A stretch of 64,000 nucleotides of DNA from Spirochaetota bacterium (GCA_016932015.1 JAFGDQ010000037.1:19918-83917); one strand, 5' to 3'. Counted from the first letter of the stretch, positions 12,799 through 61,107 are shown. Translations and numbers: made by a program. The notes: generated by a model from the sequence alone, not told the origin.

Positions 12799-15700
12799 TC
12801 AGGAATTCTTCAACATATTTATCATTCTCTTCAAAGATTCTGTTTCTGATAAGATTATCAAATTTCCAATAACTTTATCATCCTGATGGAAGAAATAAGT
12901 ATTCATGGACATTGCATAATCACCGGTAATATTATTCTGTAATAATACGGAATCAACTGTGGACTGTATATAATCATGAATAACAGTTGGGACATCAGGC
13001 CTGATTGATAAATTTATTTTCTCAGATAATGCATTAATCATTGAAGAACCTATTATGTTTGTCAGCTCTTTCAAAGCTGATTCACCATCCTGATCAAGTG
13101 TCTTGGTTTTTCCTGTAGACATTCCGTACAATAAATCAATCAGTTCAAAGCCGGATTCTTCGGTAAAACTGAAAAGGACAGCACCGTTAATATCTCCGGT
13201 TACAGGCATAAAAACACCAAGATAAACCGTATCAATGTCACCTATTGATTTTGCAATATTTTTTATTGGTACAATTTCTACCTCTGGAATTGAAAGTGAA
13301 ACGCCTTTATCAAGAATCCTGGAAAGAGACTCAGCCGCATTTGCCGCTCCGATATTTGCAATTACGTCAATTTTTTCCATGTCTTTTTTTTCTATCTCAA
13401 GTGACTTAATAATAACGTCATCACTATCGACATTTACATTGGACATAATATTGTCCTCAAGTTCCTGTCTGAACCCGTTTAAAGTTTCTTTAACTTTATC
13501 CTCAATATCATCATCTTTGACAAAGTTTTTTTCTTCAGCTGACTGATCACTTATAACAGTAGTCGATTCAGCCATCTTTTTATCACTATCATTAACTTCA
13601 TCTTTGTAAGACTGAATAATATCGTCTTTTGTATCACTTGTTATATCTTCAGGCTGATCCGGTATTTTCTCTATGGTCTCCGGTTCTTCAACAACATCCT
13701 CTTTATTAAATATAATATCTTCTGTAATATCCTTTTCCTCATGCTCTGAAGAGATATCAATTCCAAACTCTGTGTCCTCATCTATAGTAAGACTTTCCGA
13801 TGATATGTCTGTGACTGGAGTCGGTTTAGGTTTTACTGGTTCAGACTTGATTTTTCCCGATTCCTCCTGTTCATCAAACAGAATCACAGGCTCTGGTTCC
13901 ACTTCAGAGACTTCTTTTTCAATTTCCACGACCCTTTCATCAATTCTTTTAATGTCGAGGTCTCCTGATTTCCTGTATCTGAGCATTTTTTCTTCGTCAG
14001 AAATAACTTTATTAATCATGGATGCAATATCAAGAATCAGACAGATACTGCCGTCACCGAGTATTGATGCACCGGAGAGACCGTCAATATTAGTATAATT
14101 CTCTTCAAGCGACTTAATTACTATTTCCTGTTTTCCTTCAAGGCTATCAACAATAACGCCTATTTTTCTGTTTCCATATCCGACAACTACCACAGGAGTC
14201 TTCATCTCTTCGGTAAGAGAACTGTTTATTCCGATAAATTCGTTTAGCCTTAACAGGGATAATATTTCACCTCTTAAATTAATTACCTCCCTGCCTTCAA
14301 TAGTGGTAATGTCTGATTGTATTATCTTTATTGTTTCTATAACATCAGGCAGCGGAATCGAATACATTTCCTCCCGTACTTTGACCATAATTGCCGGTAT
14401 AATTGCCAGAGTCAGCGGGAATGCCAGAATAAAATTTGTACCCATTCCCGGTTCCGTCTCTATGCGGACACTGCCGTTTAATTCGTTCACAGTCTCTTTT
14501 ACAACATTCATGCCAACACCGCGGCCGGATATATCTGTTACAATATCCGCTGTTGAAAATCCTGGATGAAAAATAAACTCGCAGATGTCATCATTGCTCA
14601 TATTATCTAACATCTCAGGACCCACAAGATTTTTCTTCAAAGCAATCTTGCGAATTTTTTCAATATCAAGGCCTTTACCGTCATCCCCGACTTCTACAAA
14701 AATCTGATTACCTCCCTGATAAGCATTAATACTTACAACAGCCTCTTCAGGCTTGCCAAGCCTTCTTCTTTCCTCAGGCTTCTCGACACCATGATCAATT
14801 GAATTTCTCAGGAGATGCAGCAGTGGTTCTCCAATTACATCAATGACCTTTTTATCAAGCTCAGTATCCTCTCCTTTTATTACAAATTTAATATTCTTCT
14901 TAAATTCCTTTGCAAGATCTCTTACAGGCCTGTTGAACCTTGAAAGCACCTGTCCAATAGGAACCATTCTTGTCTGCATTATCCGGCTTTGTAAATCTTT
15001 AGCGATTCTGGACATCTGATCCATTCTGTTCTTGAATTCGCCTATAATTGACTTGTCCGTATTTGTTTTTTTAAGATCATCAAAAAGACTGAAGAATCCG
15101 GAATTTGCGATAACAAGCTCCCCGACCGTGTTTAAGAGCAGATCAAGTTTATCAACAGATACTTTTACTATTTTCAGACTTACAGCTTTTTTATCTTCCT
15201 TTCTTCTGCCGAAAGCTATCTCTTCATGATCTTCATCATATAAAGCAGAAGTCTTATCAACTGTAATATTCTCCGGAGACTGAGAAGTTATTTCTGCTTC
15301 AGAAGGATTTTCTTCCTCCTTTTCCTGGAAAAGAACTTCTTTATCATGAAATTTCATAGCTGTTTTATTGTTCTTTTTCGATAGAGATACTTTCCTAATC
15401 TCAACCCGATTAATCTGATCAATAACACATACTTCTTTTATTTTTTCAACCGGTTGGTCAGTAAAAAATGTTATTTTGAATGAACTGTCCTTCCAGTCAT
15501 CAGAAATATTATCAACTTCAGGTTCACTTTTTATTACTTCAACAAATTGATCCAGGCTGTTCATTATTAACTGAATTTTTATCCATTTCATCTGAGCATC
15601 TGGATCTATTTCTATGTATAATTCATAACAGGGCTTTTCAATTTTGAGCCCTCCTGTCAGAGTTTTAATTTCATTTTGAGTATATTGAATTTTAGAATTT

Positions 15701-16143
15701 TCTTTCTTTTTTTCTTTTAAACCTGATTCTTTCGCCGGTTCAACGGCATTGGAATTATCTGCAATGTTTTTTATTTTTCTGATCGTCACTGATAAATCCT
15801 GTGTAGGCTCTTCTCCTGAAGCAACAGAATTAATTATTGAATTTATTAAATCAAAGCACTCAAAGAGTACCTCGATTATTTCCGGTGTCATCTTCATTGT
15901 TTCATCCCGGACACCCTGTAGAAGATTCTCCATATGATGAGCAAGATCGCTAAGATCATTTAAGCCTACAAAAGCAGCAGAACTCTTAAGGGAATGAGCT
16001 GTTCTGAAAATACTGTTTATTGTTTCTGTGTGAATCTGGTCCGGATTTTTTTCAAGTTCCAGAAGACTCTGGTTCAATTCCTGCAGTTGTTCATCTGCTT
16101 CTTCAAGAAAAATGTCCTGATATTCCCCAATAGTAAAAGCCAT
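12799..16143 (-). CDS. cheA: chemotaxis histidine kinase CheA with C-terminal CheC/CheX-like phosphatase domain
   Basis: 1114 aa; P1 HPt (FRTAHSLKSSAAFVG), P2, P3, HATPase (NSIDHGVE..GRGVGM), P5 CheW-like domain; about 150-aa acidic linker; C-terminal about 220 aa carrying CheC-family motifs (ANIGAANAAESLSRIL and ELTNIIGSSMINALSE). Confidence 0.9.
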   Translation of the reverse strand: MAFTIGEYQDIFLEEADEQLQELNQSLLELEKNPDQIHTETINSIFRTAHSLKSSAAFVGLNDLSDLAHHMENLLQGVRDETMKMTPEIIEVLFECFDLINSIINSVASGEEPTQDLSVTIRKIKNIADNSNAVEPAKESGLKEKKKENSKIQYTQNEIKTLTGGLKIEKPCYELYIEIDPDAQMKWIKIQLIMNSLDQFVEVIKSEPEVDNISDDWKDSSFKITFFTDQPVEKIKEVCVIDQINRVEIRKVSLSKKNNKTAMKFHDKEVLFQEKEEENPSEAEITSQSPENITVDKTSALYDEDHEEIAFGRRKEDKKAVSLKIVKVSVDKLDLLLNTVGELVIANSGFFSLFDDLKKTNTDKSIIGEFKNRMDQMSRIAKDLQSRIMQTRMVPIGQVLSRFNRPVRDLAKEFKKNIKFVIKGEDTELDKKVIDVIGEPLLHLLRNSIDHGVEKPEERRRLGKPEEAVVSINAYQGGNQIFVEVGDDGKGLDIEKIRKIALKKNLVGPEMLDNMSNDDICEFIFHPGFSTADIVTDISGRGVGMNVVKETVNELNGSVRIETEPGMGTNFILAFPLTLAIIPAIMVKVREEMYSIPLPDVIETIKIIQSDITTIEGREVINLRGEILSLLRLNEFIGINSSLTEEMKTPVVVVGYGNRKIGVIVDSLEGKQEIVIKSLEENYTNIDGLSGASILGDGSICLILDIASMINKVISDEEKMLRYRKSGDLDIKRIDERVVEIEKEVSEVEPEPVILFDEQEESGKIKSEPVKPKPTPVTDISSESLTIDEDTEFGIDISSEHEEKDITEDIIFNKEDVVEEPETIEKIPDQPEDITSDTKDDIIQSYKDEVNDSDKKMAESTTVISDQSAEEKNFVKDDDIEDKVKETLNGFRQELEDNIMSNVNVDSDDVIIKSLEIEKKDMEKIDVIANIGAANAAESLSRILDKGVSLSIPEVEIVPIKNIAKSIGDIDTVYLGVFMPVTGDINGAVLFSFTEESGFELIDLLYGMSTGKTKTLDQDGESALKELTNIIGSSMINALSEKINLSIRPDVPTVIHDYIQSTVDSVLLQNNITGDYAMSMNTYFFHQDDKVIGNLIILSETESLKRMINMLKNS

Positions 16144-16977: not shown

Positions 16978-17553
16978 ATGCCTCAAAATATTAACATTAA
17001 AAAAATTCCGACAATGGAGCAATGCTATCAAATTATATCAGACAGTAAAATGCTTCCAAATATAGTCAAACACTCAGAACAGGTAATGAATGTAGCGTTA
17101 ATCATCTTCAATAATTTAAAACCGGGCATTAACCTGAATAAAAATCTGATTCTCTCCGGATCCTTACTGCATGACATTAAAAAAACAGAATCATTAACTT
17201 CCAGAGAGCCTCATGACATAATTGGAGCTGAATTCGTTAAAAATCTTGGATATATTGAACTGGCAGAAATTATTGAAGAACATGTAATTTTAAAAAATTT
17301 TATTCCTGAAGGCCCTCTCCTTGAAAAAGAAATCGTATTTTACGCTGATAAACGTGTTATGCATGATGAAATTGTCAGTGTTGAAAAAAGAATTGATGAT
17401 ATCCTCATCAGATATGGAAAAACAAAAAGAAGAAGAATCGAAATATTAAAAAACAAAAAAATAATACTGGAAGTTGAAAAGAAGGTTATTTTTAATTTAA
17501 AAAATGATATCGGGGAAATATTAAAAAACAATCATACAGCTTCCTTTAATTAA
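16978..17553 (+). CDS. HD-domain phosphohydrolase (YqeK-like)
   Basis: 191 aa; H...HD motif (HSEQV...LLHDIKK) and FYADK region. Confidence 0.6.
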   Translation: MPQNINIKKIPTMEQCYQIISDSKMLPNIVKHSEQVMNVALIIFNNLKPGINLNKNLILSGSLLHDIKKTESLTSREPHDIIGAEFVKNLGYIELAEIIEEHVILKNFIPEGPLLEKEIVFYADKRVMHDEIVSVEKRIDDILIRYGKTKRRRIEILKNKKIILEVEKKVIFNLKNDIGEILKNNHTASFN

Positions 17554-17556
17554 AAA

Positions 17557-17883
17557 TCAGAATTTCTTACGCTCCTTATTATGTCCAAGTCTGTTCATTA
17601 TATATACAGCAATATAAGCACCAATAATCCCGGCAATTATATTAACTCCTGTATCATATACAAGAAAACTGAGTACTTTAATCGTAATATCAAGAAAAAG
17701 TTTATCCAGAATAAATCCACCGATTAATGCCCCTACTATTCCAACAGCAAATCCGCCGGTATATCCGCCAAAAAGTTCCCTTCTTTTCATAAAGTAGAAA
17801 ATCCATGATACAAATGCGCCAATAGCCAGATATATGGCAATTGCTAGAAGTTTCATTAAAAAACCCATTAAATCTTCAGACAT
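17557..17883 (-). CDS. small membrane protein, GlsB/YeaQ/YmgE-like
   Basis: 108 aa; three hydrophobic segments with Gly-rich GALIGGFILD motif. Confidence 0.5.
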   Translation of the reverse strand: MSEDLMGFLMKLLAIAIYLAIGAFVSWIFYFMKRRELFGGYTGGFAVGIVGALIGGFILDKLFLDITIKVLSFLVYDTGVNIIAGIIGAYIAVYIMNRLGHNKERKKF

Positions 17884-18130
17884 AAATACCTCTGCACGCG
17901 GATTAAATAATCTATTACGTTATTTGTTGTTTAATTCGTATATCTGTCAATTATTTATTGCTTTTAAAAACCGAAGCTGCATAAAAGTAATTTAAGATAT
18001 AAATTTTGAAAAATCAAATAACACTCAATATTTATAATGATTTTCATTTAACTTTAAAAAAATAAAACTCTTGAAGTAATATAAAATTATATTTTTATTT
18101 AGATTACTATTTTATTACCAATGTAAAATT

Positions 18131-20182
18131 ATGCCTATAGAAGATAATACAAAAAATTTTAAACCAAATGAAAAGGATCCGGAATTGCTGATTTCCCATT
18201 TGAAATCTGTTATTCTTGAAAAAGATCCTGATGCAGATATCGATACAATTGATAAAGCCTATAAATTCGCATATGACTCTCACAAAAACCAACTCAGACT
18301 TTCCGGAGAGCCCTACATAACACATCCTCTGCAGGTTGCTATAATACTGGCTAATCTGAATCTCGATATAACAACAATTACAGCAGCCCTATTGCATGAT
18401 GTTATTGAAGATACTAAAACAAATTTTGATATTATTAAAAATAAATTTTCGGAAGAGACTGCTGTATTAGTCGACGGCGTTACAAAAATTTCTTCATTAA
18501 AGAAAAAAACAAAATACGATGAAGCGCATAATCTTCGGAAAATGCTGCTCGCAACAATCAATGATATCAGAGTAATATTAATAAAACTCGCGGATAAACT
18601 CCATAATATGAGGACTATAAGATATCAGAATCCTGACAAACAGAAACAAATAGCCGGGGAAGTCCTTGACATTTACGCTCCACTTGCCAACAGGCTGGGT
18701 ATATCACAAATTGCATCGGAAATATCCGACATTGCATTTGAAATTATTTATCCGGAAGAATATTCAGAAATAGTAACCAAAATTACCCATAACAGAGATG
18801 AAATTGAAAAATATATCATCAATATCCAGGAAATACTTAATAAGAGATTTAAGGAACTCGGCATTAAAGCTGAAATAACCGGGAGGGCAAAACATTATTA
18901 CTCAATTTTCCAGAAAATGGAAAAGCAGAATAAATCACTGAAAGATATTTTTGATATACGCGCTGTCAGAATTATAACCGATGAACTGAAAGACTGTTAC
19001 GGTATTCTTGGCGTAATTCACACCCTCTGGTCTCCAATCAGCTCAAGATTCAAAGACTATATTGCTGTTCCGAAATCAAATATGTATCAATCTATTCATA
19101 CAACTGTAATCGGTCCGCAGGGGCACCCCCTTGAGATTCAAATAAGGACCAGAGAAATGCATATTACTGCTGAAATAGGAATTGCGGCACACTGGTTATA
19201 CAAAGAAAATCCAAAAACAAAGTCGAGGGAATATAAAGAAATAACGCTTTTAAAAAATATTCAAAAACGCCAGTTCGTCAATGACAGGCCCAAAGATTTT
19301 CTAAAAGAATTGAAGATGGATCTTTATACTGATGAAATATTTACTTTCACTCCAAGAGGGAAAATTATCAAACTGGCAAAAGGTGCTACACCCGTGGATT
19401 TCGCTTACGCAATACATACTGAAATCGGACATCATTGCATCGGCGCAAAAGTTAATAATAAAATTGTTCCCCTGAAATCAGAACTTAACAGCGGTGATAT
19501 AGTTGAAATCAGGACAGGTAACAAAGAGCATCCGTCAGAATCCTGGCTTAAATTTGTTAAGAGTTCAAATGCAAGATACAAGATAAGAAACTGGTTAAGA
19601 AAAAATAAGGATTCAAATCCAAATATTGAAAAAGACCAGAAAGAGCAAAAAACTATTGAGGTGTCAATTCCGAATAATGAATTATTTAAAATTAAGGATT
19701 ATTCAGGAAGGAATAAACAGAATCTTTTTATTGACGGCACATCAAATATCTTAATAAAACTCTCTCAATGCTGTCAACCGATTCCGGGTGACGAGGTAGT
19801 AGGTTTCATTACCAGAGGACGCGGACTGACTGTTCATAAAAAGACATGTCCATCATTATTGCGTCTTAAAGCTGAAAAGGAAAGATTCATTAATATCGTA
19901 TGGAAGGGATCCATCGATACTTTCCCGGTAAAAATAGCGGTACATGCCATTGATAGAAAAAATTTATTAAAAGATATTGCGGAAAAAATTTCAGCGGCAA
20001 AGACTAACATTATAAGAATGGAAGCGGACGCAAAAGAAAAAGATAATGTTATTTTCAAATTTATTCTTGAAGTTACAAGCACAGACCATTTAAGTGAACT
20101 TATGAAATTACTCAAAAACATTAAAAATATAACCAAAGTATATAAAATCAATGAGAAAGTACAGTTAAAACATAAAGAATAA
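18131..20182 (+). CDS. relA: bifunctional (p)ppGpp synthetase/hydrolase RelA/SpoT
   Basis: 683 aa; HD hydrolase (HPLQVA..LHDVIEDT), synthetase domain, TGS and C-terminal ACT. Confidence 0.9.
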   Translation: MPIEDNTKNFKPNEKDPELLISHLKSVILEKDPDADIDTIDKAYKFAYDSHKNQLRLSGEPYITHPLQVAIILANLNLDITTITAALLHDVIEDTKTNFDIIKNKFSEETAVLVDGVTKISSLKKKTKYDEAHNLRKMLLATINDIRVILIKLADKLHNMRTIRYQNPDKQKQIAGEVLDIYAPLANRLGISQIASEISDIAFEIIYPEEYSEIVTKITHNRDEIEKYIINIQEILNKRFKELGIKAEITGRAKHYYSIFQKMEKQNKSLKDIFDIRAVRIITDELKDCYGILGVIHTLWSPISSRFKDYIAVPKSNMYQSIHTTVIGPQGHPLEIQIRTREMHITAEIGIAAHWLYKENPKTKSREYKEITLLKNIQKRQFVNDRPKDFLKELKMDLYTDEIFTFTPRGKIIKLAKGATPVDFAYAIHTEIGHHCIGAKVNNKIVPLKSELNSGDIVEIRTGNKEHPSESWLKFVKSSNARYKIRNWLRKNKDSNPNIEKDQKEQKTIEVSIPNNELFKIKDYSGRNKQNLFIDGTSNILIKLSQCCQPIPGDEVVGFITRGRGLTVHKKTCPSLLRLKAEKERFINIVWKGSIDTFPVKIAVHAIDRKNLLKDIAEKISAAKTNIIRMEADAKEKDNVIFKFILEVTSTDHLSELMKLLKNIKNITKVYKINEKVQLKHKE

Positions 20183-20228
20183 GATTCAACAACTGAAAAA
20201 CAAAATTAATAAAATGTAAATAATAGAA

Positions 20229-20819
20229 ATGCAGACCATCCTTGCCTCATCATCACCACGCAGAAAAATTATATTACAAAATTATTTTGATAATTTACTA
20301 ATTGTAATTCCCTCCATTGATGAGATTGCACGAACTGATGAAGTGCCTGTAAAATTCTGCGAAAGAATCTCGAAAGAAAAAGCCAGATCAGTTTCAAAAG
20401 AAATAAACGGATCTGATTCAGTATTAATTATTTCATGTGACACGATCGTAACTATTGAAAATAATATCATTGGTAAACCTATTAATCTTAATGATGCAAT
20501 AAATAAAATCAACATGCTCAGCGGTAAAATGCATTCTGTTTTCAGCAGCATTACACTGCTTCATCAGGAAAGTGGTGAAAAAAAATATCTTACCCGAACA
20601 GAAACAAGTAATGTTAATTTCAAACAATTATCCGGCAATGATATAGTAAATTATCTTAATAAGATAAACTATATGGATAAAGCCGGAGCTTATGCGATTC
20701 AGGAACACGGGGATTTAATAATCAACTCTATTCAAGGCTCGATGACAAATATAATCGGTTTTCCGTTAAGATTATTCTTCAGAATGCTATCAGAAATGAA
20801 TTTACTTTACAAATTATAA
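20229..20819 (+). CDS. maf: Maf-like nucleoside triphosphate pyrophosphatase
   Basis: 196 aa; ILASSSPRRKIIL N-terminus typical of Maf. Confidence 0.85.
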   Translation: MQTILASSSPRRKIILQNYFDNLLIVIPSIDEIARTDEVPVKFCERISKEKARSVSKEINGSDSVLIISCDTIVTIENNIIGKPINLNDAINKINMLSGKMHSVFSSITLLHQESGEKKYLTRTETSNVNFKQLSGNDIVNYLNKINYMDKAGAYAIQEHGDLIINSIQGSMTNIIGFPLRLFFRMLSEMNLLYKL

Positions 20820-20867
20820 ATTCACATTTAAAATAATTCCATTCAATAATACAACAGGATGATATAA

Positions 20868-21410
20868 ATGAAACAGCGGAAAAAATATGTAATTGATAAA
20901 AAATTTCAGATTAAAACGACAGCATTTATTCTTGGTATAAGCTCAATCGTTGTAATCATTCTATTAAGCGCATTAAGCATATATATTACCGGTAATAATT
21001 TAAAATTAAATAACATTATAATAATTCAGGATAACGTTGTTGAAACACTGCTTACTCTTTCCCAGAACAACCAGAACGAAAGCGTAAAATTATCTATAAA
21101 TACTGCAGCAAAAAATCATCAAAACAACATTAGATCCATAAAAAATATTATAAATCTTAATACAACATTTGTAGCCATTATATTAATTATTGCTGTAATT
21201 CAGTATATAATACTATATTTTGTAATATTAAGAAAAACTCATAAAATTTCAGGCCCGGCATACGTGATATCCGGATACTTAAAAGAAATACTTAACGGCA
21301 GATATCCGGAGACAAGACCTCTCCGGAAAGGAGATGAATTAACTGAACTGCACGATATAACGGTTAAGCTTATAGATACAATGAAGGATAAAAAGATTAT
21401 ATTAAAATAG
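20868..21410 (+). CDS. membrane protein: TM - periplasmic segment - TM - HAMP-like domain, no output domain
   Basis: 180 aa; two TM helices; C-terminal PAYVISGYLKEILNG...RKGDELTELHDITVKLIDTM matches the HAMP consensus. Confidence 0.5.
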   Translation: MKQRKKYVIDKKFQIKTTAFILGISSIVVIILLSALSIYITGNNLKLNNIIIIQDNVVETLLTLSQNNQNESVKLSINTAAKNHQNNIRSIKNIINLNTTFVAIILIIAVIQYIILYFVILRKTHKISGPAYVISGYLKEILNGRYPETRPLRKGDELTELHDITVKLIDTMKDKKIILK

Positions 21411-21546
21411 TAACAATTCTTTTCATGGTAGGCATCAGCATAATACTTAAAATATAAAACTGGGTGAAACAAATATTGAAAACCGGACTTTTCATTATTA
21501 TTATCAGAATCCAAGAGATACAATCTGTTAAAGATAATAAATTCCT

Positions 21547-22440
21547 ATGACGATAGAAAAAAAAACAGCAAGAGTTACTATAATGAATAAAAATAAAAAA
21601 TTCGTATTAATATTAAATATCTTTTTATTATATTGTTTTTTTATAACTCCGGCTTTTTCCATTTCTACTGCAGTTAAAGCTGAAATGGATTATAAATTAC
21701 TATTGAAACAATTAAGATTTTCCACAATCGCTATTGAAAATTTTGCAAATGCAGAGCAGAAGAAAAAATTTGATGAAATTAAAACGCTTTTCAGAGATGC
21801 CTCAGCAGAACATTATGGTCAGAGATATGAAATTGCCTTTAATAAATTTAATAAAGTTAAAGAAGACCTTTTACCTTTACTTGACGAGCTAACTCTTATT
21901 TACTTAAAAAGATCAAGAGATATACTTGATTCAACAGCAAAACAGGCATTTGACATTATAATCAAATATTCAAATGACACTCCCTTTGCCAAAAATTTTA
22001 AATATCCTTTTGATCCAATTGAGAATAGAAAGGGTTATGATGAGAAGGAATACCATTTTTATTATGACAGAAGCAAAATTGAAAATTTTCTGAATAATGG
22101 CTATCAAAACCTGGCACAGGCAAATATTTTATATAATAATGCAGATTTTATCTACTTAAAAAGTCAGAAGAAAAAAAACCGGGAAGATCTCAATTCGATT
22201 TTGAAGCAATATACAGAAATAATTAAAGTCTGCAGGCTGGCTAAAATGTACGGCATTGAAATTTATAAAATCTTCAATGATGATAAAACCAGTGAAATTT
22301 TAATCAAGCACAGAATCTCTGTAAAAAATATCAAACCGGTTTTTGATGACAGAATACCCGACGACTATAAGCCGGATGCAGCAGACAACGAACTGACAAT
22401 TTTAGACGATGAAAAGAACCTGCACCTACAGAAGGAATAA
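21547..22440 (+). CDS. secreted hypothetical protein
   Basis: 297 aa; N-terminal signal peptide (alternative start at MNKNKK); helical, no recognisable family. Confidence 0.45.
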   Translation: MTIEKKTARVTIMNKNKKFVLILNIFLLYCFFITPAFSISTAVKAEMDYKLLLKQLRFSTIAIENFANAEQKKKFDEIKTLFRDASAEHYGQRYEIAFNKFNKVKEDLLPLLDELTLIYLKRSRDILDSTAKQAFDIIIKYSNDTPFAKNFKYPFDPIENRKGYDEKEYHFYYDRSKIENFLNNGYQNLAQANILYNNADFIYLKSQKKKNREDLNSILKQYTEIIKVCRLAKMYGIEIYKIFNDDKTSEILIKHRISVKNIKPVFDDRIPDDYKPDAADNELTILDDEKNLHLQKE

Positions 22441-54144: not shown

Positions 54145-54217
54145 AGCCCACGACCAGGATCGAACTGGTGACCTTTTGCTTACCATGCAAATGCTCTACC
54201 GACTGAGCTACGTGGGC
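54145..54217 (-). tRNA. tRNA-Thr (anticodon GGU)
   Basis: 73-nt cloverleaf parsed by hand: acceptor GCCCACG/CGTGGGC, D arm GCTC-AGTCGGTA-GAGC, anticodon arm TTTGC-ATGGTAA-GCAAA, T arm ACCAG-TTCGATC-CTGGT; CCA not encoded. Confidence 0.85.
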
Positions 54218-54320: not shown

Positions 54321-55226
54321 TTATTCCTGATTCTCAATAACAAATGAAGATATGTCCTTATCCCGCAGCAGACTCTTAATTTTGCTTGCCTGCCCTTTTG
54401 TTCCGATTTTATTTACCCTGACCTTATACAGATCATTTTCGCTGAAAACTGTAACAGGATTATCAACAATTTCTTCAATCTTTTTCTGTAATCTTTCTGC
54501 ATTTCTTCTTGAATAAAAAGCTCCTGCCTGTATTGAATAAGCATCCCCGGCATAAGAAGAAGTGCTATTCTCATCTTCGCTATAAAAATCTTCCTCTTTC
54601 TCATCATATGCAACAGCTACAACAGAATTTTTCCCATTTAAATCTGCAGCTTTATTATCAGTTAAGCCGCCTTTTCCGAGTATGGAAATACCTACTTTAG
54701 CTTCTCCAGAAGCCAGTATTCCCAGTTTCCTGGCTGCCGCATATGATAAATCAATTATTCTGCCGTCTCTATACGGCCCCCGGTCATTTACAGTTACATT
54801 GACATAATTTCCATTTTCAAGATTCTTTACAACAAGCTGGGTACCGAAAGGTAATTTTTTATGTGCTGCTGTTAATCTGTTCATATCAAATTTCTCTCCG
54901 GAAGCAGTTTTTCTCCCGTGAAATTCCCTGCCGTACCAGGATGCGTATCCGGTTTGATAATAAGCATTGCTTTCATTACAGGAATTATTTCTGTCCTCTT
55001 TTGTTGAAGATGCAGCATCATATGTAAACTCAGAATCATTTTCAAATTCATCGTATGAATATTTTTCTGAATTTTTGTCATTTTGAGGCATTTCATTAAT
55101 ATTACGGCTGCCCTGATCCGGATTATTATTTTTCACAAAAGCTTTATTGGGTGCGCATGCGGTTATTAGCGCAAAGATCAGCAAAATTCCAGCAAGAATC
55201 GCCATTCCGCGTATTAATTTTATCAT
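54321..55226 (-). CDS. rlpA: septal ring lytic transglycosylase RlpA-like lipoprotein (DPBB + SPOR domains)
   Basis: 301 aa; lipoprotein signal ...LITAC; double-psi beta-barrel YQTGYASWYG..GRKTASGE; C-terminal SPOR domain. Confidence 0.85.
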   Translation of the reverse strand: MIKLIRGMAILAGILLIFALITACAPNKAFVKNNNPDQGSRNINEMPQNDKNSEKYSYDEFENDSEFTYDAASSTKEDRNNSCNESNAYYQTGYASWYGREFHGRKTASGEKFDMNRLTAAHKKLPFGTQLVVKNLENGNYVNVTVNDRGPYRDGRIIDLSYAAARKLGILASGEAKVGISILGKGGLTDNKAADLNGKNSVVAVAYDEKEEDFYSEDENSTSSYAGDAYSIQAGAFYSRRNAERLQKKIEEIVDNPVTVFSENDLYKVRVNKIGTKGQASKIKSLLRDKDISSFVIENQE

Positions 55227-55696
55227 TTTCTTACCTCCACTATTTCAATCTATTTCTTATATCGGAATTGAAATCAATTGCCTTAACTTAAAACCTTATT
55301 ATATTATTTAAATTCACATGTAAAATTGGTCCTTGTAATTTTTTCTCCCGATATTGTCCGGGAAGAATTTACTGTCTGGCATTAAATTTCATTTTTATTT
55401 ATTTATTTTATTTCGGTGAATTGTCTTAAAAATTTTTCAGGATTCTTTTCATCGAAACAAATTCGGCATATTCTTTTACTTAATTTCCCAATATTTTATA
55501 AATTGCTTGCAGCAATCCCGTAAAAGTCTTGATATTTTTCCGGTCATAATAGAAAAATCCTATTATTCTTTATGAGACATAATATTATCTGATTTAATAT
55601 TTCGAATGCTGCAGTGAATAAATCCGGTTTTTTTACAGATTTATGAATTATTGAACATTATTATTACAATCATATAAATATCTGAAGGTTCTGTTA

Positions 55697-56731
55697 ATGA
55701 GTATTGTTTCAAATAAACCCACTATCACGCGTAAAGAAATGGAAGGAGTGCTTGACTGCCTGATAAACGGTGAACTTATAAGCGGCTATTCTGTAAAAAA
55801 TTTTGAAAATGCAATTTCCGCACTTTTAAAGACAAGATTTTCACTCTCTACGAATTCATCAACTTCCGCCTACCATTTGGTATTCAAAGCACTGGAGATA
55901 GGGAATTCTGATGAAGTAATTGTGCCTTCTTTTTTTGATATTGCTCCTTTAAGCGCAATAACTCTCGCGGGAGCTTCTGCAATACTAACTGACATAGAAG
56001 AAAACTCTTTTGCTCCTTCTCCTGATCAGATAAAAGCAAAAATTACTGACAGGACCAAGGCGATTGTTATAGGCCACAATTTCGGATTTCCAGTGGATAT
56101 TACCGGCCTGGCAGAAATAAATATACCAATAATTGAAGATTTATCTCATATTATTGGCGGAGAAATCCGTGAAGAATCTTTATCGAATGTTATTAATGTT
56201 GTATCTTTTGCTCCGGGATCACTAATTACAACAGGAAACGGGGGAGTAATTTCAACCGGCAACTCACGTTTGTATTCAACAATGAAAGATTACAGGGATA
56301 ATCGCTCAAACAACCTTAACATTGGTTATGATTATTGTTTAACAGATTTTCAGGCTGCTATGGGAATTCATCAGTTAAACAGATTACAGGCTTTTATTAA
56401 AAGAAGAAAAGACATTGCAAAGCTTTATTATGATTCAATGAAATTCTCGAATCACAAACTTTTTTATCATTTTAGTGAAGAATTTCTTTATCAGTCTTTT
56501 CCGGTAATTTTTGACTCACCCCTCGATAAAGTTGAAAGCTACTGGAAAAAAGCCAAAATTGAGATATCGAGGCCTGTTTCAATACCGCTTCACAAATATT
56601 TAAACCTGAAGCCGATGGATTATCCAAACAGTGAGCGCTTATCAAACAAATTGTTCTCTTTACCTATTTATCCCGGATTAACCAAAAAGGAAATAGAAAA
56701 GATATCAAAAGCTGTTGCTAAATTTCTTTAA
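55697..56731 (+). CDS. DegT/DnrJ/EryC1/StrS-family aminotransferase-fold protein lacking the PLP lysine
   Basis: 344 aa; family-like N-terminus; the segment VSFAPGSLITTGNGG aligns to the canonical FSFHATKPITTGEGG with Lys->Ser and Glu->Asn. Confidence 0.6.
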   Translation: MSIVSNKPTITRKEMEGVLDCLINGELISGYSVKNFENAISALLKTRFSLSTNSSTSAYHLVFKALEIGNSDEVIVPSFFDIAPLSAITLAGASAILTDIEENSFAPSPDQIKAKITDRTKAIVIGHNFGFPVDITGLAEINIPIIEDLSHIIGGEIREESLSNVINVVSFAPGSLITTGNGGVISTGNSRLYSTMKDYRDNRSNNLNIGYDYCLTDFQAAMGIHQLNRLQAFIKRRKDIAKLYYDSMKFSNHKLFYHFSEEFLYQSFPVIFDSPLDKVESYWKKAKIEISRPVSIPLHKYLNLKPMDYPNSERLSNKLFSLPIYPGLTKKEIEKISKAVAKFL

Positions 56732-56744
56732 TATAAGGACAAAA

Positions 56745-56778
56745 AAGCTTCAAATTTATTCTTTTGAGGCTTTTTTTT
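56745..56778 (+). terminator. rho-independent terminator after the DegT-like gene
   Basis: 10-bp stem AAGCUUCAAA/UUUGAGGCUU with one G-U pair, 7-nt loop, then eight U residues. Confidence 0.7.
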
Positions 56779-56796: not shown

Positions 56797-57723
56797 TTAC
56801 ATTAAAATATTATTTTCCAGAATCCCGATAATGTCATCTCTGCTGCCTGCTCTCATTAACTGCGCTCTCAGAATTTTACTATTCCTTAATCCGCGTGTAT
56901 ATTTAGCCGCATGCTTTCTGAATAAAATAATACCGCTTTCGCCGTAAAAATCCAGCATCAGATCAAGATGCTTTTTTATCTGATCTGTAAGTTCGTTTTC
57001 ATCAGGGACACGACCGGAAAAAATCCACGGATTGCCTATTGCTCCTCTTCCGATCATTACAGCATCACATCCTGAGATTTTCAGGCGCATCATAGCTTCA
57101 GAATATGAATTGATATCCCCATTACCTATTACCGGAACTTTACTGATGGATTTAATTTCCCTGATAATGTCCCAGTCAGTCTCTCCCCTGAAAGCCTGGG
57201 ACCTTGTTCTGCCATGAACAGAAATAAGGGATATACCGGCTTCCTGCAGTACATTAACAACCTCAATATAGTTTAATGTATCAGCATCAATTCCTATTCT
57301 GATCTTCGCAGTAACAGGCACTGAAACGCTCGTCACTATTTTGTTTGTTATTTCAGCAATCAAATCCGGTTTGCTTAATAAAGCCGCGCCAGAGCCGCTG
57401 CCGAAAACCCTTCTGACTGAGCAGCCCATATTTATGTCAATGAAATCCGGCTTCCATTCCTGAACAATTACCGCGGCTTCACGCATTACTTCAACGTCAT
57501 TTCCAAATACCTGAATACCAATAGGCCTTTCTTCTTCACAAAACCTTAGTAAATCTGTTGTTTTTGTATTTCTTCTTATTATGCCGTCAGCACTGATCAG
57601 TTCAGAAATTACTGCGCCCGAGCCGTGTCTTCTTGCGATTCTCCTGTATGGAGAGTCTGAATAACCGGCCATAGGTGCCAGGATAAGATTGCTTTTTATA
57701 GTAAAATCACCAATTTTTATCAT
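56797..57723 (-). CDS. dus: tRNA-dihydrouridine synthase
   Basis: 308 aa; TIM-barrel FMN enzyme motifs LAPMAGYSD..IDINMGC. Confidence 0.88.
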   Translation of the reverse strand: MIKIGDFTIKSNLILAPMAGYSDSPYRRIARRHGSGAVISELISADGIIRRNTKTTDLLRFCEEERPIGIQVFGNDVEVMREAAVIVQEWKPDFIDINMGCSVRRVFGSGSGAALLSKPDLIAEITNKIVTSVSVPVTAKIRIGIDADTLNYIEVVNVLQEAGISLISVHGRTRSQAFRGETDWDIIREIKSISKVPVIGNGDINSYSEAMMRLKISGCDAVMIGRGAIGNPWIFSGRVPDENELTDQIKKHLDLMLDFYGESGIILFRKHAAKYTRGLRNSKILRAQLMRAGSRDDIIGILENNILM

Positions 57724-57821: not shown

Positions 57822-58730
57822 TTATTTATCTGATGTAAGATACGGATTCCCCTGCCCTTTTGTCGAGTTTCCATTGCCGGAACCTCCTCCGGAACCGGCA
57901 GTTGAACTGTTACTTGCATCTGTAGAATCAAAATAGCTGAAAGAATAATAGAAAATCAACTTAAAATGTGAATGGAAATAATATGCAGCACTAATATTTG
58001 TTCCGAAGATATTGTAATCATCTGAATCTCTGCCTGCAGATACTCCGGCCATTAAAAAATACAGTCCACCCGGCGCATAAATACAACCCGCACGAAAAAT
58101 ATTTTTAATGTAATCACTTCCTGTGGAGTCAAAATAAAGTGTTGAATATGTATATGTAAGATCAAAACCTGTGGAATCATTAAAATAATAATCTATCCCG
58201 AAATCCAAATCCTGCGCGGTTGATTCAATTTCATTCGAATCAATTTGATAATTAAAATCTTCATAAGAATAAGCGCCCGATATTATTGCGGAAGCAATTT
58301 CAAGTTCAATATTTACGTAATATATATTTCTTGATAAATTATTGCCACTCAGTTCTTTTAAATCCTCCGCCCTGCTGTATTCGCCCGAAAGCATAAAATA
58401 CTTATAAATATAAATTCTAAGGGATGCTCCGGCCTCACTGAATGATCTGTAATCGTATTCACCGTTTCCATCTGTAATCTGATAATTAAAATACTGATTA
58501 AAATAAGAGGCAATACCCAGATAATCCATTTTATACAGAGCTTTAATTCCTGTTACGTTGTAAGCGTAGGATTCGGACATTCCTGTTGAATATACACCTT
58601 TGGTTTCCAGATTCAAGTCAACATGGAAATTATTGTTTATTCCACGGGCAACTAAACCCGTTTTACTGCCAATAAAAACAGCTAAAAACAGGATAAATAC
58701 AGAAATACGGAATTTCATTTTAACGTCCAA
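57822..58730 (-). CDS. secreted Tyr/Asn-rich beta-strand protein (putative outer-membrane beta-barrel)
   Basis: 302 aa; signal peptide; alternating aromatic/hydrophilic strands; Gly/Ser/Asn-rich C-terminus; no terminal aromatic residue. Confidence 0.45.
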   Translation of the reverse strand: MDVKMKFRISVFILFLAVFIGSKTGLVARGINNNFHVDLNLETKGVYSTGMSESYAYNVTGIKALYKMDYLGIASYFNQYFNYQITDGNGEYDYRSFSEAGASLRIYIYKYFMLSGEYSRAEDLKELSGNNLSRNIYYVNIELEIASAIISGAYSYEDFNYQIDSNEIESTAQDLDFGIDYYFNDSTGFDLTYTYSTLYFDSTGSDYIKNIFRAGCIYAPGGLYFLMAGVSAGRDSDDYNIFGTNISAAYYFHSHFKLIFYYSFSYFDSTDASNSSTAGSGGGSGNGNSTKGQGNPYLTSDK

Positions 58731-59414: not shown

Positions 59415-59972
59415 ATGACAGAAAACCGGATTATTAGAGAAATTTATAATCTCTACCATAAAGAATTGTTTATTTATATCTACAGATTCATCAGAGCACA
59501 AGAGACATCTGAAGACATACTGCAGGATACTTTTTACAATCTTATTAAATATTCAGAAAACCACAATATAGATAAAAGCAGGGCCAGAGCATTCCTGTAC
59601 AGGACAGCTCATAATCTATGCATAAACTACAAAAAGAGACAAACCAGCATCAGCTTTTCCGCTCTTGATGAAACCAGCAATATTTCCGCGTCAGACAATA
59701 TACTTGATAATTTACAGTCCAGGGAACTGGAAAAAAAAATATATGAATTATTAAATGAAACTGATCCGGTCTCAAGATCTATTTTCATTATGAAGAAGGA
59801 GTTGGATATGACAATTGATGAAATAGCAGACAACACGGGAAAATCACATCGGACTGTACGGAGAAAATTGCAAAAGACATTGACTTATCTTTATGAAAAT
59901 TTAAGAAAAAACGGGATCATTTTATTATTAATCATCCTGAAATTGTCATTTCTGGACAAGTTAATTGTATAA
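59415..59972 (+). CDS. ECF-type sigma-70 family RNA polymerase sigma factor
   Basis: 185 aa; region 2 (SEDILQDTFYNLIKY, FLYRTAHNLCINY) and region 4.2 HTH (MTIDEIADNTGKSHRTVRRKLQKT); unusual hydrophobic C-terminal 18 aa. Confidence 0.8.
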   Translation: MTENRIIREIYNLYHKELFIYIYRFIRAQETSEDILQDTFYNLIKYSENHNIDKSRARAFLYRTAHNLCINYKKRQTSISFSALDETSNISASDNILDNLQSRELEKKIYELLNETDPVSRSIFIMKKELDMTIDEIADNTGKSHRTVRRKLQKTLTYLYENLRKNGIILLLIILKLSFLDKLIV

Positions 59973-59991
59973 TAATCAGATTGAGAAAATT

Positions 59992-61107
59992 ATGATAAAA
60001 CCCTGTAAACATCCGGATAAAAATAAGCTTATCGAATATATTCTTAATTCCCGGAATAACTATACATCATATATAAGTGATCATTTAAAAGAATGTGAAG
60101 AGTGCAAAAAACTTTTTGCTTCATTAAAAAATATTCTTATAAAATCTGAAAATTCAGGCCTTGCTCCTTCAAATCATACAGCTGACAGAATTTTCAATCA
60201 TTTGAATAAGCAGCAGAACATTAAAGAAAAATCCCGGATAAATTCTTTCAGACAAATGATACTAAAGCCTGCAACAGCATCATTAGTCGTATTATGCGTG
60301 ACAGGTATATTCTTTGTATATAATTATTTTAAAATACTTCCTGGCACTGAAAAAATATCCCTTTCATTATTGCAGAACAACGGAACTATATTTCATGAGA
60401 ATAAAATAATAAAGGAAAGGACTTTTGCTGTTAACAGCGGCTCAATAACCACAAATAACAATTCATCCGCAACTTTAAGCCTGAATTATTTCTTTAACAT
60501 CAGAATTGTGGAAAATACTGAATTATTTATTCAATCTGCTGCGCAATCAAGGACTAAAGATGGAAGTGTATATGAACTTAATTTTGAATTGAAGACAGGC
60601 AATATTTTTGCAGAGTGGAAAGACCATAAAATCCGGAAAAATATTACAGTTAAAACAAAACACGCAGATTTTCAGCCGATTGGGACCGGATTCATCCTTT
60701 CCAGAAAAAATAATCTTACCAGACTTGCAGTTATTGAAGGCAGTGTCAGAATATCAATCAAAAAATCAGGTGATACATATATTATTAAATCAGGTGAAGG
60801 ATATATCATCAGTAATACATCACATAAAATCCGTATAAATACTGAAAATGAAGTCAGAAATTTTAATACTCTCTTTAATAAAAAAGATTCCTCTTTGAAG
60901 AACGCTGAAAAATCAGGGGCTAAAGCGCAACAGTACCATAAGAAAAAAAATAATTCTGAAACCAATAAAGAGAAAAATGAAAAGGCAATAAAGAATAAGG
61001 CTATTGATGAAATGAAAAACGAAAAAAAATCAATGCAAAGAGAAAACAGAAAAAAAAGAAAAGAAATGCTTAAGAATATCCGATCCAGTAAAAACTCCAA
61101 AAGTTAA
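59992..61107 (+). CDS. anti-sigma factor (ZAS-like N-terminus, TM helix, FecR-like periplasmic domain, K/E-rich tail)
   Basis: the track ORF starts at a TTG (59965); the ATG at 59992 has a GAGAAAA RBS; HLKECEECKK zinc motif; TM ASLVVLCVTGIFFVY; FecR-like LAVIEGSVRI; about 80-aa lysine-rich C-terminus. Confidence 0.65.
   Translation: MIKPCKHPDKNKLIEYILNSRNNYTSYISDHLKECEECKKLFASLKNILIKSENSGLAPSNHTADRIFNHLNKQQNIKEKSRINSFRQMILKPATASLVVLCVTGIFFVYNYFKILPGTEKISLSLLQNNGTIFHENKIIKERTFAVNSGSITTNNNSSATLSLNYFFNIRIVENTELFIQSAAQSRTKDGSVYELNFELKTGNIFAEWKDHKIRKNITVKTKHADFQPIGTGFILSRKNNLTRLAVIEGSVRISIKKSGDTYIIKSGEGYIISNTSHKIRINTENEVRNFNTLFNKKDSSLKNAEKSGAKAQQYHKKKNNSETNKEKNEKAIKNKAIDEMKNEKKSMQRENRKKRKEMLKNIRSSKNSKS

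Follow-up and report, generated by a model that had tools for sequence, protein, structure and literature searches.

A DegT/DnrJ/EryC1/StrS-fold clade of Leptospira and related Spirochaetota without the Schiff-base lysine

Background

What does the scaffold of a nucleotide-sugar aminotransferase do once the lysine that forms the Schiff base with its cofactor is gone? The question is raised by a gene on the plus strand of a 64,000-nucleotide stretch of DNA from a Spirochaetota bacterium (GCA_016932015.1, JAFGDQ010000037.1:19918-83917), hereafter the window, by which we mean the whole of that stretch. The gene, taken from a list of open reading frames (ORFs), runs from an ATG start to a TAA stop at 55697..56731 and codes for a 344-residue protein of the DegT/DnrJ/EryC1/StrS fold, identical in sequence to NCBI MBN2039546.1 from a metagenome-assembled genome (MAG) of a Spirochaetes bacterium. 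A serine stands in it at the position of the lysine that would bind pyridoxal 5'-phosphate (PLP). An original prediction, made from the DNA sequence alone, had noticed the missing lysine and offered three options for the product, namely a pseudoenzyme, a PLP-independent binding protein, or an enzyme using a different residue. Here we report that the loss is shared by a clade reaching into cultured Leptospira and accompanies a remodelling of the cofactor site. We posit, with a probability of roughly 0.6, that the protein is a neofunctionalised pseudo-aminotransferase, serving in a housekeeping process either as a cofactor-less binding or regulatory protein or as a catalyst that does without PLP. 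Almost certainly it does something other than transamination.

Results and discussion

An aminotransferase fold with serine at the lysine position

To place the Schiff-base lysine, the protein was aligned using HMMER to solved sugar aminotransferases. Bases 56204-56245 translate to SFAPGSLITTGNGG (residues 170-183), in which Ser175 (codon 56219..56221, plus strand; a variable residue in the family) falls opposite the alanine that stands for the lysine in GDP-perosamine synthase K186A (3DR4, 'sffgnAiittgegg') and opposite the lysine itself in HCAN_0200 (7N63, 'sfypgKnlgalgdgg'); in 7B0D the lysine sits in a one-residue gap beside Ser175. The S-x4-K motif of PF01041 accordingly has Ser175 at its lysine position. 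Asn181 lies opposite the Glu/Asp of G(E/D)GG, turning GEGG into GNGG. The canonical PseC-like genes that we retrieved for comparison read FSFHPVKIITTGEGG, which is close to the lysine-loop motif given in the original prediction. The alignment that had been proposed there as a check thus bears out its reading of the locus: the catalytic lysine is replaced by serine, the neighbouring glutamate by asparagine, and the flanking motifs are kept, EDLSH as residues 147-151 (56135..56149, plus strand; Asp148 being the counterpart of the aspartate that forms a salt bridge with the pyridine nitrogen of the cofactor) and TTGNGG as residues 178-183 (56228..56245, plus strand), at the end of the segment given above. 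Within the latter loop the family shows no variation at Thr178, Thr179 or Gly182, and Asn181 takes the place of the usual Glu/Gln.

The protein matches the PF01041 profile over positions 2-359 of 360 (E=1.2e-60; 206 bits against a cut-off of 19.8), and meets none of the NCBIfam equivalog cut-offs. PseC scores best with 159 bits against 423.5, followed by ArnB (142 against 631) and LegC (130 against 420), and the score stays below 40% of every equivalog cut-off tested (PseC, ArnB, LegC, WecE, DesI and RfbH). An AlphaFold2 (AF2) model built from a 37-sequence family alignment has a mean predicted local distance difference test score (pLDDT) of 87.9 and a predicted template modelling score (pTM) of 0.88. 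When this predicted structure was submitted to Foldseek, ArnB, GDP-perosamine synthase, WbpE and DesV, among other sugar aminotransferases, were matched at E ~1e-28, with template modelling (TM) scores of 0.85-0.89 and 22-28% identity. Structure prediction, which had also been suggested as a check, hence returned a confident fold of the DegT type: taken together, the model and its matches show the two-domain, aspartate-aminotransferase-like architecture of fold-type I and, as predicted, the fold of the nucleotide-sugar aminotransferases. The least confident part of the model is the N-terminal 30 residues (pLDDT 60-68), which bear the invariant PTITR motif; the protein is presumed to be dimeric, and this weakly predicted segment would fit packing against the partner subunit. 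Since the N-terminus, M-x-I-V-S-x-KPTITRKE, is kept across 37 aligned relatives, we take the start codon of the gene to be right, and a GAAGG motif resembling a Shine-Dalgarno sequence lies 9-13 nt 5' of the ATG.

The nearest characterised proteins are nucleotide-sugar aminotransferases, represented among models by PseC (TIGR03588), ArnB (NF008658) and LegC (TIGR04181), and among structures by 7B0D, ArnB (1MDO/4OCA) and GDP-perosamine synthase (3BN1/3DR4). With these the window protein has in common the full-length profile, the fold, the pyridine-nitrogen aspartate, the serine of S-x4-K, the threonine of SGT, the TTGxGG loop and the C-terminal PxH and PxYPxL motifs. It differs from them in being ~20-35 residues shorter at 22-28% identity, in lacking the Schiff-base lysine and the phosphate-cup glycine, in having aspartate for the asparagine donated across the subunit interface, and in the change of the GEGG glutamate to asparagine. 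Its gene also lies among housekeeping genes, whereas theirs belong to O-antigen, capsule or antibiotic-sugar clusters.

Loss of the lysine across the clade, including Leptospira

A search of 5.8 billion proteins recovered 297 homologues, of which the best 120 were examined at the lysine position. These are proteins of 338-368 residues, 49-100% identical to the query, from Spirochaetota/Leptospirales MAGs. The lysine is absent in 119 of the 120, its place being taken by S, C, G, M, D, I and others, and TTGNGG is nearly invariant among the family homologues. Because so many of the closest homologues lack it, the missing lysine of the window gene is no sequencing accident; in these sequences the position is unconstrained and evolves freely. 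The sole family member with lysine at the canonical position (P0057) reads SFSPTKIITTGNGG and is in the rest of its length a typical Lys-less sequence; its lysine may be a reversion, or may have arisen by chance at an unconstrained site.

When the library is clustered at 50% identity, the family comes down to a single full-length representative, after which scores fall from 421 to 225 bits. The following ~140 representatives comprise 113 with the lysine ('SFYATK') and 28 without. In a neighbor-joining tree of these representatives, which is rough and unbootstrapped, 24 of the 28 Lys-less sequences group in one clade with the target family, and the remaining four (three with Arg and one with Gln at the position) are found among Lys-containing branches. 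A profile search with the Lys-less outgroup led to a sister clade of 356-412 residues, characterised by the motifs CGLSxxxxITTGNGAM and DYxLxDYQAALG, in which the lysine position is occupied by D, H, N, S or Q in 106 sequences (His in 33/106). This sister clade occurs in cultured Leptospira: one cluster at 90% identity unites 117 sequences of L. interrogans, L. borgpetersenii, L. weilii, L. santarosai, L. kirschneri, L. kmetyi and L. mayottensis, and another holds saprophytes, among them L. meyeri and L. levettii. In the L. interrogans protein, Gln occupies the lysine position. The Lys-less DegT-fold clade is old and large and includes a core gene of cultured Leptospira, where the copy is either orthologous or closely paralogous to the window gene.

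The nearest relatives that contain the lysine form an uncharacterised DegT subfamily of ~350 residues (motifs IPHSxP, PSYVC, SFYATK and Y-R-Y), similar in length to the window protein, 30-38% identical to it, and sharing with it TTGxGG, ED and the C-terminal motifs. Unlike the window protein, this subfamily keeps the lysine (100%), Gly55 (98%), Asn212 (80%) and Arg267 (94%). It corresponds to P0125-P0269 of the representative search, and none of the ten members tested reaches an NCBIfam equivalog cut-off. In P0134 the protein is joined to a WecA-like domain, and several other members bear extra sequence, including N-terminal extensions of ~160 residues; these fusions fit a role in glycan biosynthesis.

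Remodelling of the cofactor site

In the enzymes Pcryo_0638, PglE and DesI, compared by the Holden laboratory, the only strictly conserved contacts to the aldimine are T60, D156, S180, K185 and N239; the asparagine is donated to the PLP phosphate by the partner subunit, since two subunits contribute to each active site in fold-type-I proteins (PMC8040287). Judged by the spacing of the motifs, the counterparts of these contacts in the window protein are Thr56, Asp148, Ser170, Ser175 and Asp212, of which three are kept and two changed. We audited the alignment column by column, comparing the target family with 113 Lys-containing relatives. Retained in the family are position 56 (Thr 87%; Thr/Ser in the relatives), position 148 (Asp 98%; Asp), position 151 (His 93%; Gln/His) and position 170 (Ser 94%; Ser). 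Asp148, the pyridine-nitrogen aspartate of IEDLSH, is D/E in 100% of both Lys-less clades. Altered are position 150 (Ala in the relatives, Ser in 100% of the family), positions 172-175 (Y-A-T-K against x-P-x-x), position 181 (Glu/Gln against Asn in 96%) and position 267 (Arg in 94% against Ser in 87%). At position 55, the phosphate-cup glycine of the 'SGT' motif, Gly in 98% of the relatives gives way to L/S/P in the family and to Ser in the target (codon 55859..55861, plus strand). Position 212 (codon 56330..56332, plus strand), which stands for the partner-subunit asparagine that contacts the PLP phosphate in canonical enzymes, is Asn in 80% of the relatives and Asp (89%) or Glu (10%) in the family; an acidic residue is found there in 99-100% of the sequences of both Lys-less clades and in 0% of the Lys-containing relatives.

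The phosphate cup of the window protein is therefore incomplete, with Thr56 and Ser170 kept, Gly55 lost and Asn212 changed to Asp. In the Leptospira sister clade Ser170 is changed to Gly too and Thr56 is only ~50% conserved, and among the Lys-less outgroup representatives Asp is found at 212 in 64% and Gly55 in only 18%. From these trends in the outgroup and the Leptospira clade it follows that loss of the lysine and degradation of the phosphate cup go together. The Lys-less clades are set apart by Tyr59, which occurs in 0% of the Lys-containing relatives, and further by Ser/Thr150, Asn181, Asp/Glu212, Cys21, and K/R at 314 and 318. Elsewhere in the cleft the residues either do not vary or have become fixed anew (Asp148, Ser150, His151, Ser170, the TTGNGG loop, Tyr59, Arg12 and Arg314). 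The cleft has thus been remodelled and then fixed, rather than simply relaxed.

An acidic residue at 212, where the partner subunit of canonical enzymes presents an amide to the phosphate, together with a side chain in place of Gly55, a glycine that ordinarily leaves the phosphate free access to a helix N-terminus, argues against canonical binding of PLP or pyridoxamine 5'-phosphate (PMP), as read from the alignment. We accordingly envisage a cytoplasmic protein that would be unable to form an internal aldimine and would not be a transaminase. Its phosphate pocket, apparently both filled (Gly to Leu/Ser, Leu59 to Tyr) and acidic, would most likely admit neither PLP nor PMP in the canonical manner, and the conserved, remodelled cleft between the subunits would now bind some other small molecule. 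From the acidic constellation Asp148/Asp212'/Asp217, a neutral or cationic ligand is suggested rather than a phosphorylated one.

That the gene is in use can be read from its substitution pattern. The ratio of nonsynonymous to synonymous substitution (dN/dS), calculated by the Nei-Gojobori method within a set of 82 related loci for the 39 closest gene pairs whose divergence could be measured, lies between 0.015 and 0.135 over these comparisons; hence, the gene is functional and under strong purifying selection.

Gene neighbourhoods of the window gene and its relatives

The gene order in the window is rpoC-rpoB-rplL-rplJ-rplA-rplK-nusG-secE (minus strand), tRNA-Thr, a gene for an RlpA/SPOR lipoprotein (minus), a spacer of 470 bp, the Lys-less gene (plus), a terminator and dusB (minus). 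The divergent neighbour (54321..55226, minus) codes for an MPL36-like lipoprotein of the RlpA family with DPBB and SPOR domains, which scores 154 bits with TIGR00413 against a cut-off of 82, and 174 bits with the MPL36 model, under the cut-off of that model. The convergent neighbour, dusB (56797..57723, minus), codes for a tRNA dihydrouridine synthase (TIGR00737; 316 bits against a cut-off of 293). Between the stop codon of the Lys-less gene and the convergent dusB, a hairpin followed by a T-run resembles an intrinsic terminator (56741..56776, plus). The spacer shared with rlpA (55227..55696) is divergent and very AT-rich, with promoter-like sites such as that at 55632-55661 on the plus strand, and returned no Rfam family match; at 470 bp it exceeds by a factor of over two the median length of the corresponding spacer in 63 related loci (205 bp). 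The tRNA-Thr (GGT) gene, detected with Rfam at 54145-54217 (minus), lies between secE and rlpA, and a tRNA gene is found at the equivalent place in 7 of 10 related loci scanned with Rfam.

In 59 of 82 related loci the divergent gene upstream is rlpA, which lies within two ORFs in 63 (median spacer 205 bp), a pairing that holds though the genes farther upstream vary (nusG/secE versus pheA/tyrA). Downstream and co-directional, 52 of the 82 loci have queD, coding for a 6-pyruvoyl-tetrahydropterin synthase (PTPS) of the QueD equivalog (TIGR03367; 101-103 bits against a cut-off of 89), at a median gap of 18 bp; in most cases the next genes, on the opposite strand, code for a response regulator and for a histidine kinase with PAS/GAF domains. 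The window's own sublineage (L004-L007) has dusB in place of queD, and tblastn found no PTPS/queD anywhere in the window. The description of the locus as a single gene hence applies to the window, which has the terminator-like hairpin, and to its sublineage, and fails for most relatives, in which the gene stands 18 bp (median) before queD and divergent from rlpA.

The claim that the gene lies outside a sugar-biosynthesis cluster fares better, as its neighbours are housekeeping genes both in the window and in relatives. No sugar-biosynthesis gene was found near 55697-56731, no second DegT-like sequence in the window, and no adjacent DegT paralogue either there or in any of ~140 related loci. 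The dehydratase, epimerase, acyltransferase and glycosyltransferase genes of the typical DegT sugar pathway are missing from its surroundings, a context that is usual in the family and not strictly defining. The Leptospira sister-clade genes have different surroundings, which vary among themselves. In L. weilii, the gene is downstream of a gene for an NAD-dependent epimerase of the short-chain dehydrogenase/reductase (SDR) type, and in saprophytes it is placed between genes for a class-I/II aminotransferase and a protein of 354-390 residues (cluster c1). More distant Lys-less members come after tsaE-tsaB-miaA, beside holA, or after an opp transporter. None of the Lys-less genes examined is within a polysaccharide or antibiotic-sugar cluster. 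The cluster c1 protein, for which there was no Pfam, NCBIfam or PDB match, adjoins the Lys-less gene at L092 8204-9268 (plus) and at 12 other loci on contigs of the saprophytic Leptospira type, co-directionally in 10 loci and on the opposite strand in 3. At L152 3944-7056 (plus), the Lys-less P0191 ('SFEPDEIITTGIGS') follows tsaE, tsaB and miaA after a gap of 22 bp, on a contig that also bears flagellin and V-type ATPase genes.

Genes of tRNA modification recur among these neighbours, namely queD and dusB for the window family and tsaE/tsaB/miaA for P0191. It is this recurrence of queD, miaA/tsaB/tsaE and dusB in different sublineages, and nothing further, that suggests a possible tie to nucleoside or tRNA-modification metabolism, which we regard as a weak lead. 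Two candidate extensions of it were tried and rejected. A riboswitch or leader RNA (preQ1) linking the gene to queD was sought with Rfam, which gave only tRNA genes in the window and 10 related loci. Binding of nucleic acid by charge gains no support from the median isoelectric points of 6.8 and 6.5 in the two Lys-less clades, below the 8.8 of the Lys-containing relatives. A fuller proposal, which we put forward tentatively and with considerable doubt, is that the whole Lys-less clade, including the >90%-conserved core gene of pathogenic Leptospira, would be cofactor-independent, with a remodelled acidic cleft (Asp148, Asp212', Asn181, Tyr59, Arg12 and Arg314) and a new housekeeping function, maybe in nucleoside/tRNA-modification metabolism.

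Weighing the alternatives

Several points weigh against a protein that has parted with its cofactor. The ring-side contacts (Asp148, His151, the aromatic residue at 79, Ser170 and Thr56) are kept in the target subfamily, and possible non-covalent binding of PMP, PLP or unphosphorylated pyridoxamine would be compatible with them. Lysine-to-alanine mutants of real enzymes (3DR4, 4OCA) still bind PLP-sugar aldimines, a strongly conserved cleft is at least as much to be expected of an enzyme as of a protein that only binds, and the mapping of residues used here depends on alignment at 25-28% identity. There are also natural precedents in the same superfamily. ColD, the GDP-4-keto-6-deoxymannose 3-dehydratase, and E1/RfbH, the CDP-6-deoxy-L-threo-D-glycero-4-hexulose 3-dehydrase, are PMP-dependent 3-dehydratases that naturally lack the Schiff-base lysine and are detectable homologues of the window protein (RfbH E=2e-29; ColD E ~1e-6). 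The window protein might, like these, be a neofunctionalised enzyme with non-covalent PMP or PLP, catalysing dehydration, isomerisation or half-transamination, and the low dN/dS and conserved cleft would suit such a role. However, ColD and E1 have a conserved catalytic histidine at the lysine position and an intact phosphate site, whereas the window protein has Ser175, at a position that varies freely, and a degraded phosphate site in which the cup glycine is lost and the phosphate-binding asparagine has become acidic; moreover, the sister clade is without Ser170 as well, and no dehydratase-type sugar pathway genes are nearby. We hold this alternative, the main rival, to be possible, though on the whole unlikely. 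A precedent of another kind comes from Serratia sp. ATCC 39006, whose SerTA heterotetramer contains the Lys-less 'short transaminase' subunit Ser4. This subunit is required for the activity of its partner and is shortened at its N- and C-termini, and its gene stands in tandem with that of the active Ser5 in a secondary-metabolite cluster (PMC11726168). The window protein resembles the functional Ser4 in being sugar-aminotransferase-like, retained and devoid of the catalytic lysine, and could by analogy, as a catalytically dead subunit, form a heterodimer with a canonical DegT aminotransferase whose gene lies elsewhere, completing or regulating the active site of that enzyme, as the two-subunit construction of fold-type-I active sites (PMC8040287) would favour. 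Unlike Ser4, it is full-length (344 residues, whole profile), has no adjacent paralogue in the window or the ~140 related loci and sits in a housekeeping context, and the asparagine at 212 that it would have to donate in trans is itself replaced by aspartate, which together render this arrangement quite improbable.

An ordinary sugar aminotransferase could in principle form its internal aldimine with a lysine from elsewhere in the chain, an eventuality against which the original prediction had asked to be checked. Lysines are indeed conserved within the target subfamily at K13, K34, K285 and K318, but none of them is conserved as lysine in the sister clade, where 13 is Glu and 318 is Arg in 69/106, and a scan of all alignment columns found none with lysine in at least 85% of both Lys-less clades. 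The one clade-specific basic site near the N-terminal arm, position 12, is Arg in 100% of the target family and K/R in 99% of the sister clade, against K/R in 24% of the Lys-containing relatives; arginine being unable to form a Schiff base, this residue would act electrostatically. Sought by alignment, a substitute lysine was not found, and with the degraded phosphate cup and a best equivalog score of 159 against a 423-bit cut-off we consider this alternative very improbable. A decaying pseudogene, or an artefact of sequencing or annotation, has only the missing catalytic residue to speak for it; the intact frame of 344 codons, more than 200 full-length homologues, dN/dS of 0.02-0.13 and the confident fold leave it hardly any chance, and both it and the aminotransferase with a relocated lysine are effectively excluded. 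As for the three options of the original prediction, the free lysine position, the lost glycine and the acidic 212 favour a pseudoenzyme or PLP-independent binder, and the enzyme using a different residue falls away in its simple form, no lysine being invariant across the two Lys-less clades. We therefore return to the neofunctionalised pseudo-aminotransferase as the preferred reading.

Implications for leptospires

Lys-less members of the superfamily are already known in ColD, E1 and Ser4, so that the kind is not new. The present clade is full-length and Lys-less, with no histidine at the lysine position, a partly lost phosphate cup and housekeeping contexts, and spans Leptospira and related Spirochaetota. 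Our survey of the literature found no description of a Lys-less DegT protein in Leptospira or of the clade; LIC10053, beside rlpA/MPL36, is given only as hypothetical, and no mention of LIC10055 was found. Databases name members of the clade 'DegT/DnrJ/EryC1/StrS aminotransferase' or 'pyridoxal phosphate-dependent aminotransferase', including those of L. interrogans, L. borgpetersenii and other pathogens, and the sequence evidence says that these proteins would be unable to work as the aminotransferases for which they are named. As the clade is old, tightly constrained and situated among housekeeping genes, it points to a conserved function other than transamination in leptospires, of which L. 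biflexa is genetically tractable. It offers a clean case of the repurposing of a PLP scaffold after dismantling of the cofactor site and, if the cofactor-independent reading is true, one in which a fold-type-I scaffold was turned to PLP-free chemistry or sensing.

Other features of the window

Beyond dusB, an ORF at 57822-58730 (minus) codes for 302 residues with a hydrophobic N-terminus resembling a signal peptide, many Tyr/Ser/Asp-rich repeats of beta-strand type and a tail rich in Gly, Ser and Asn; neither Pfam nor NCBIfam gave a match, and the product may be a lineage-specific outer-membrane protein. At 59415-61107 (plus), a gene for a sigma factor of the extracytoplasmic function (ECF) type (Sigma70_r2/r4_2) overlaps by 8 bp one for a 380-residue FecR-domain protein with a Lys-rich tail, the two constituting a putative sigma/anti-sigma pair. 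A CheA protein of 1114 residues encoded at 12799-16143 (minus) combines Hpt, P2, dimerisation, HATPase and CheW-like domains with a C-terminal CheX/CheC-like phosphatase domain, and is a kinase-phosphatase fusion. Finally, the genes at 16978-22440 (plus), for an HD-domain protein, RelA/SpoT, Maf and two unknowns, form a plus-strand block in an otherwise minus-strand window, and GC and AT skew jump at this block.

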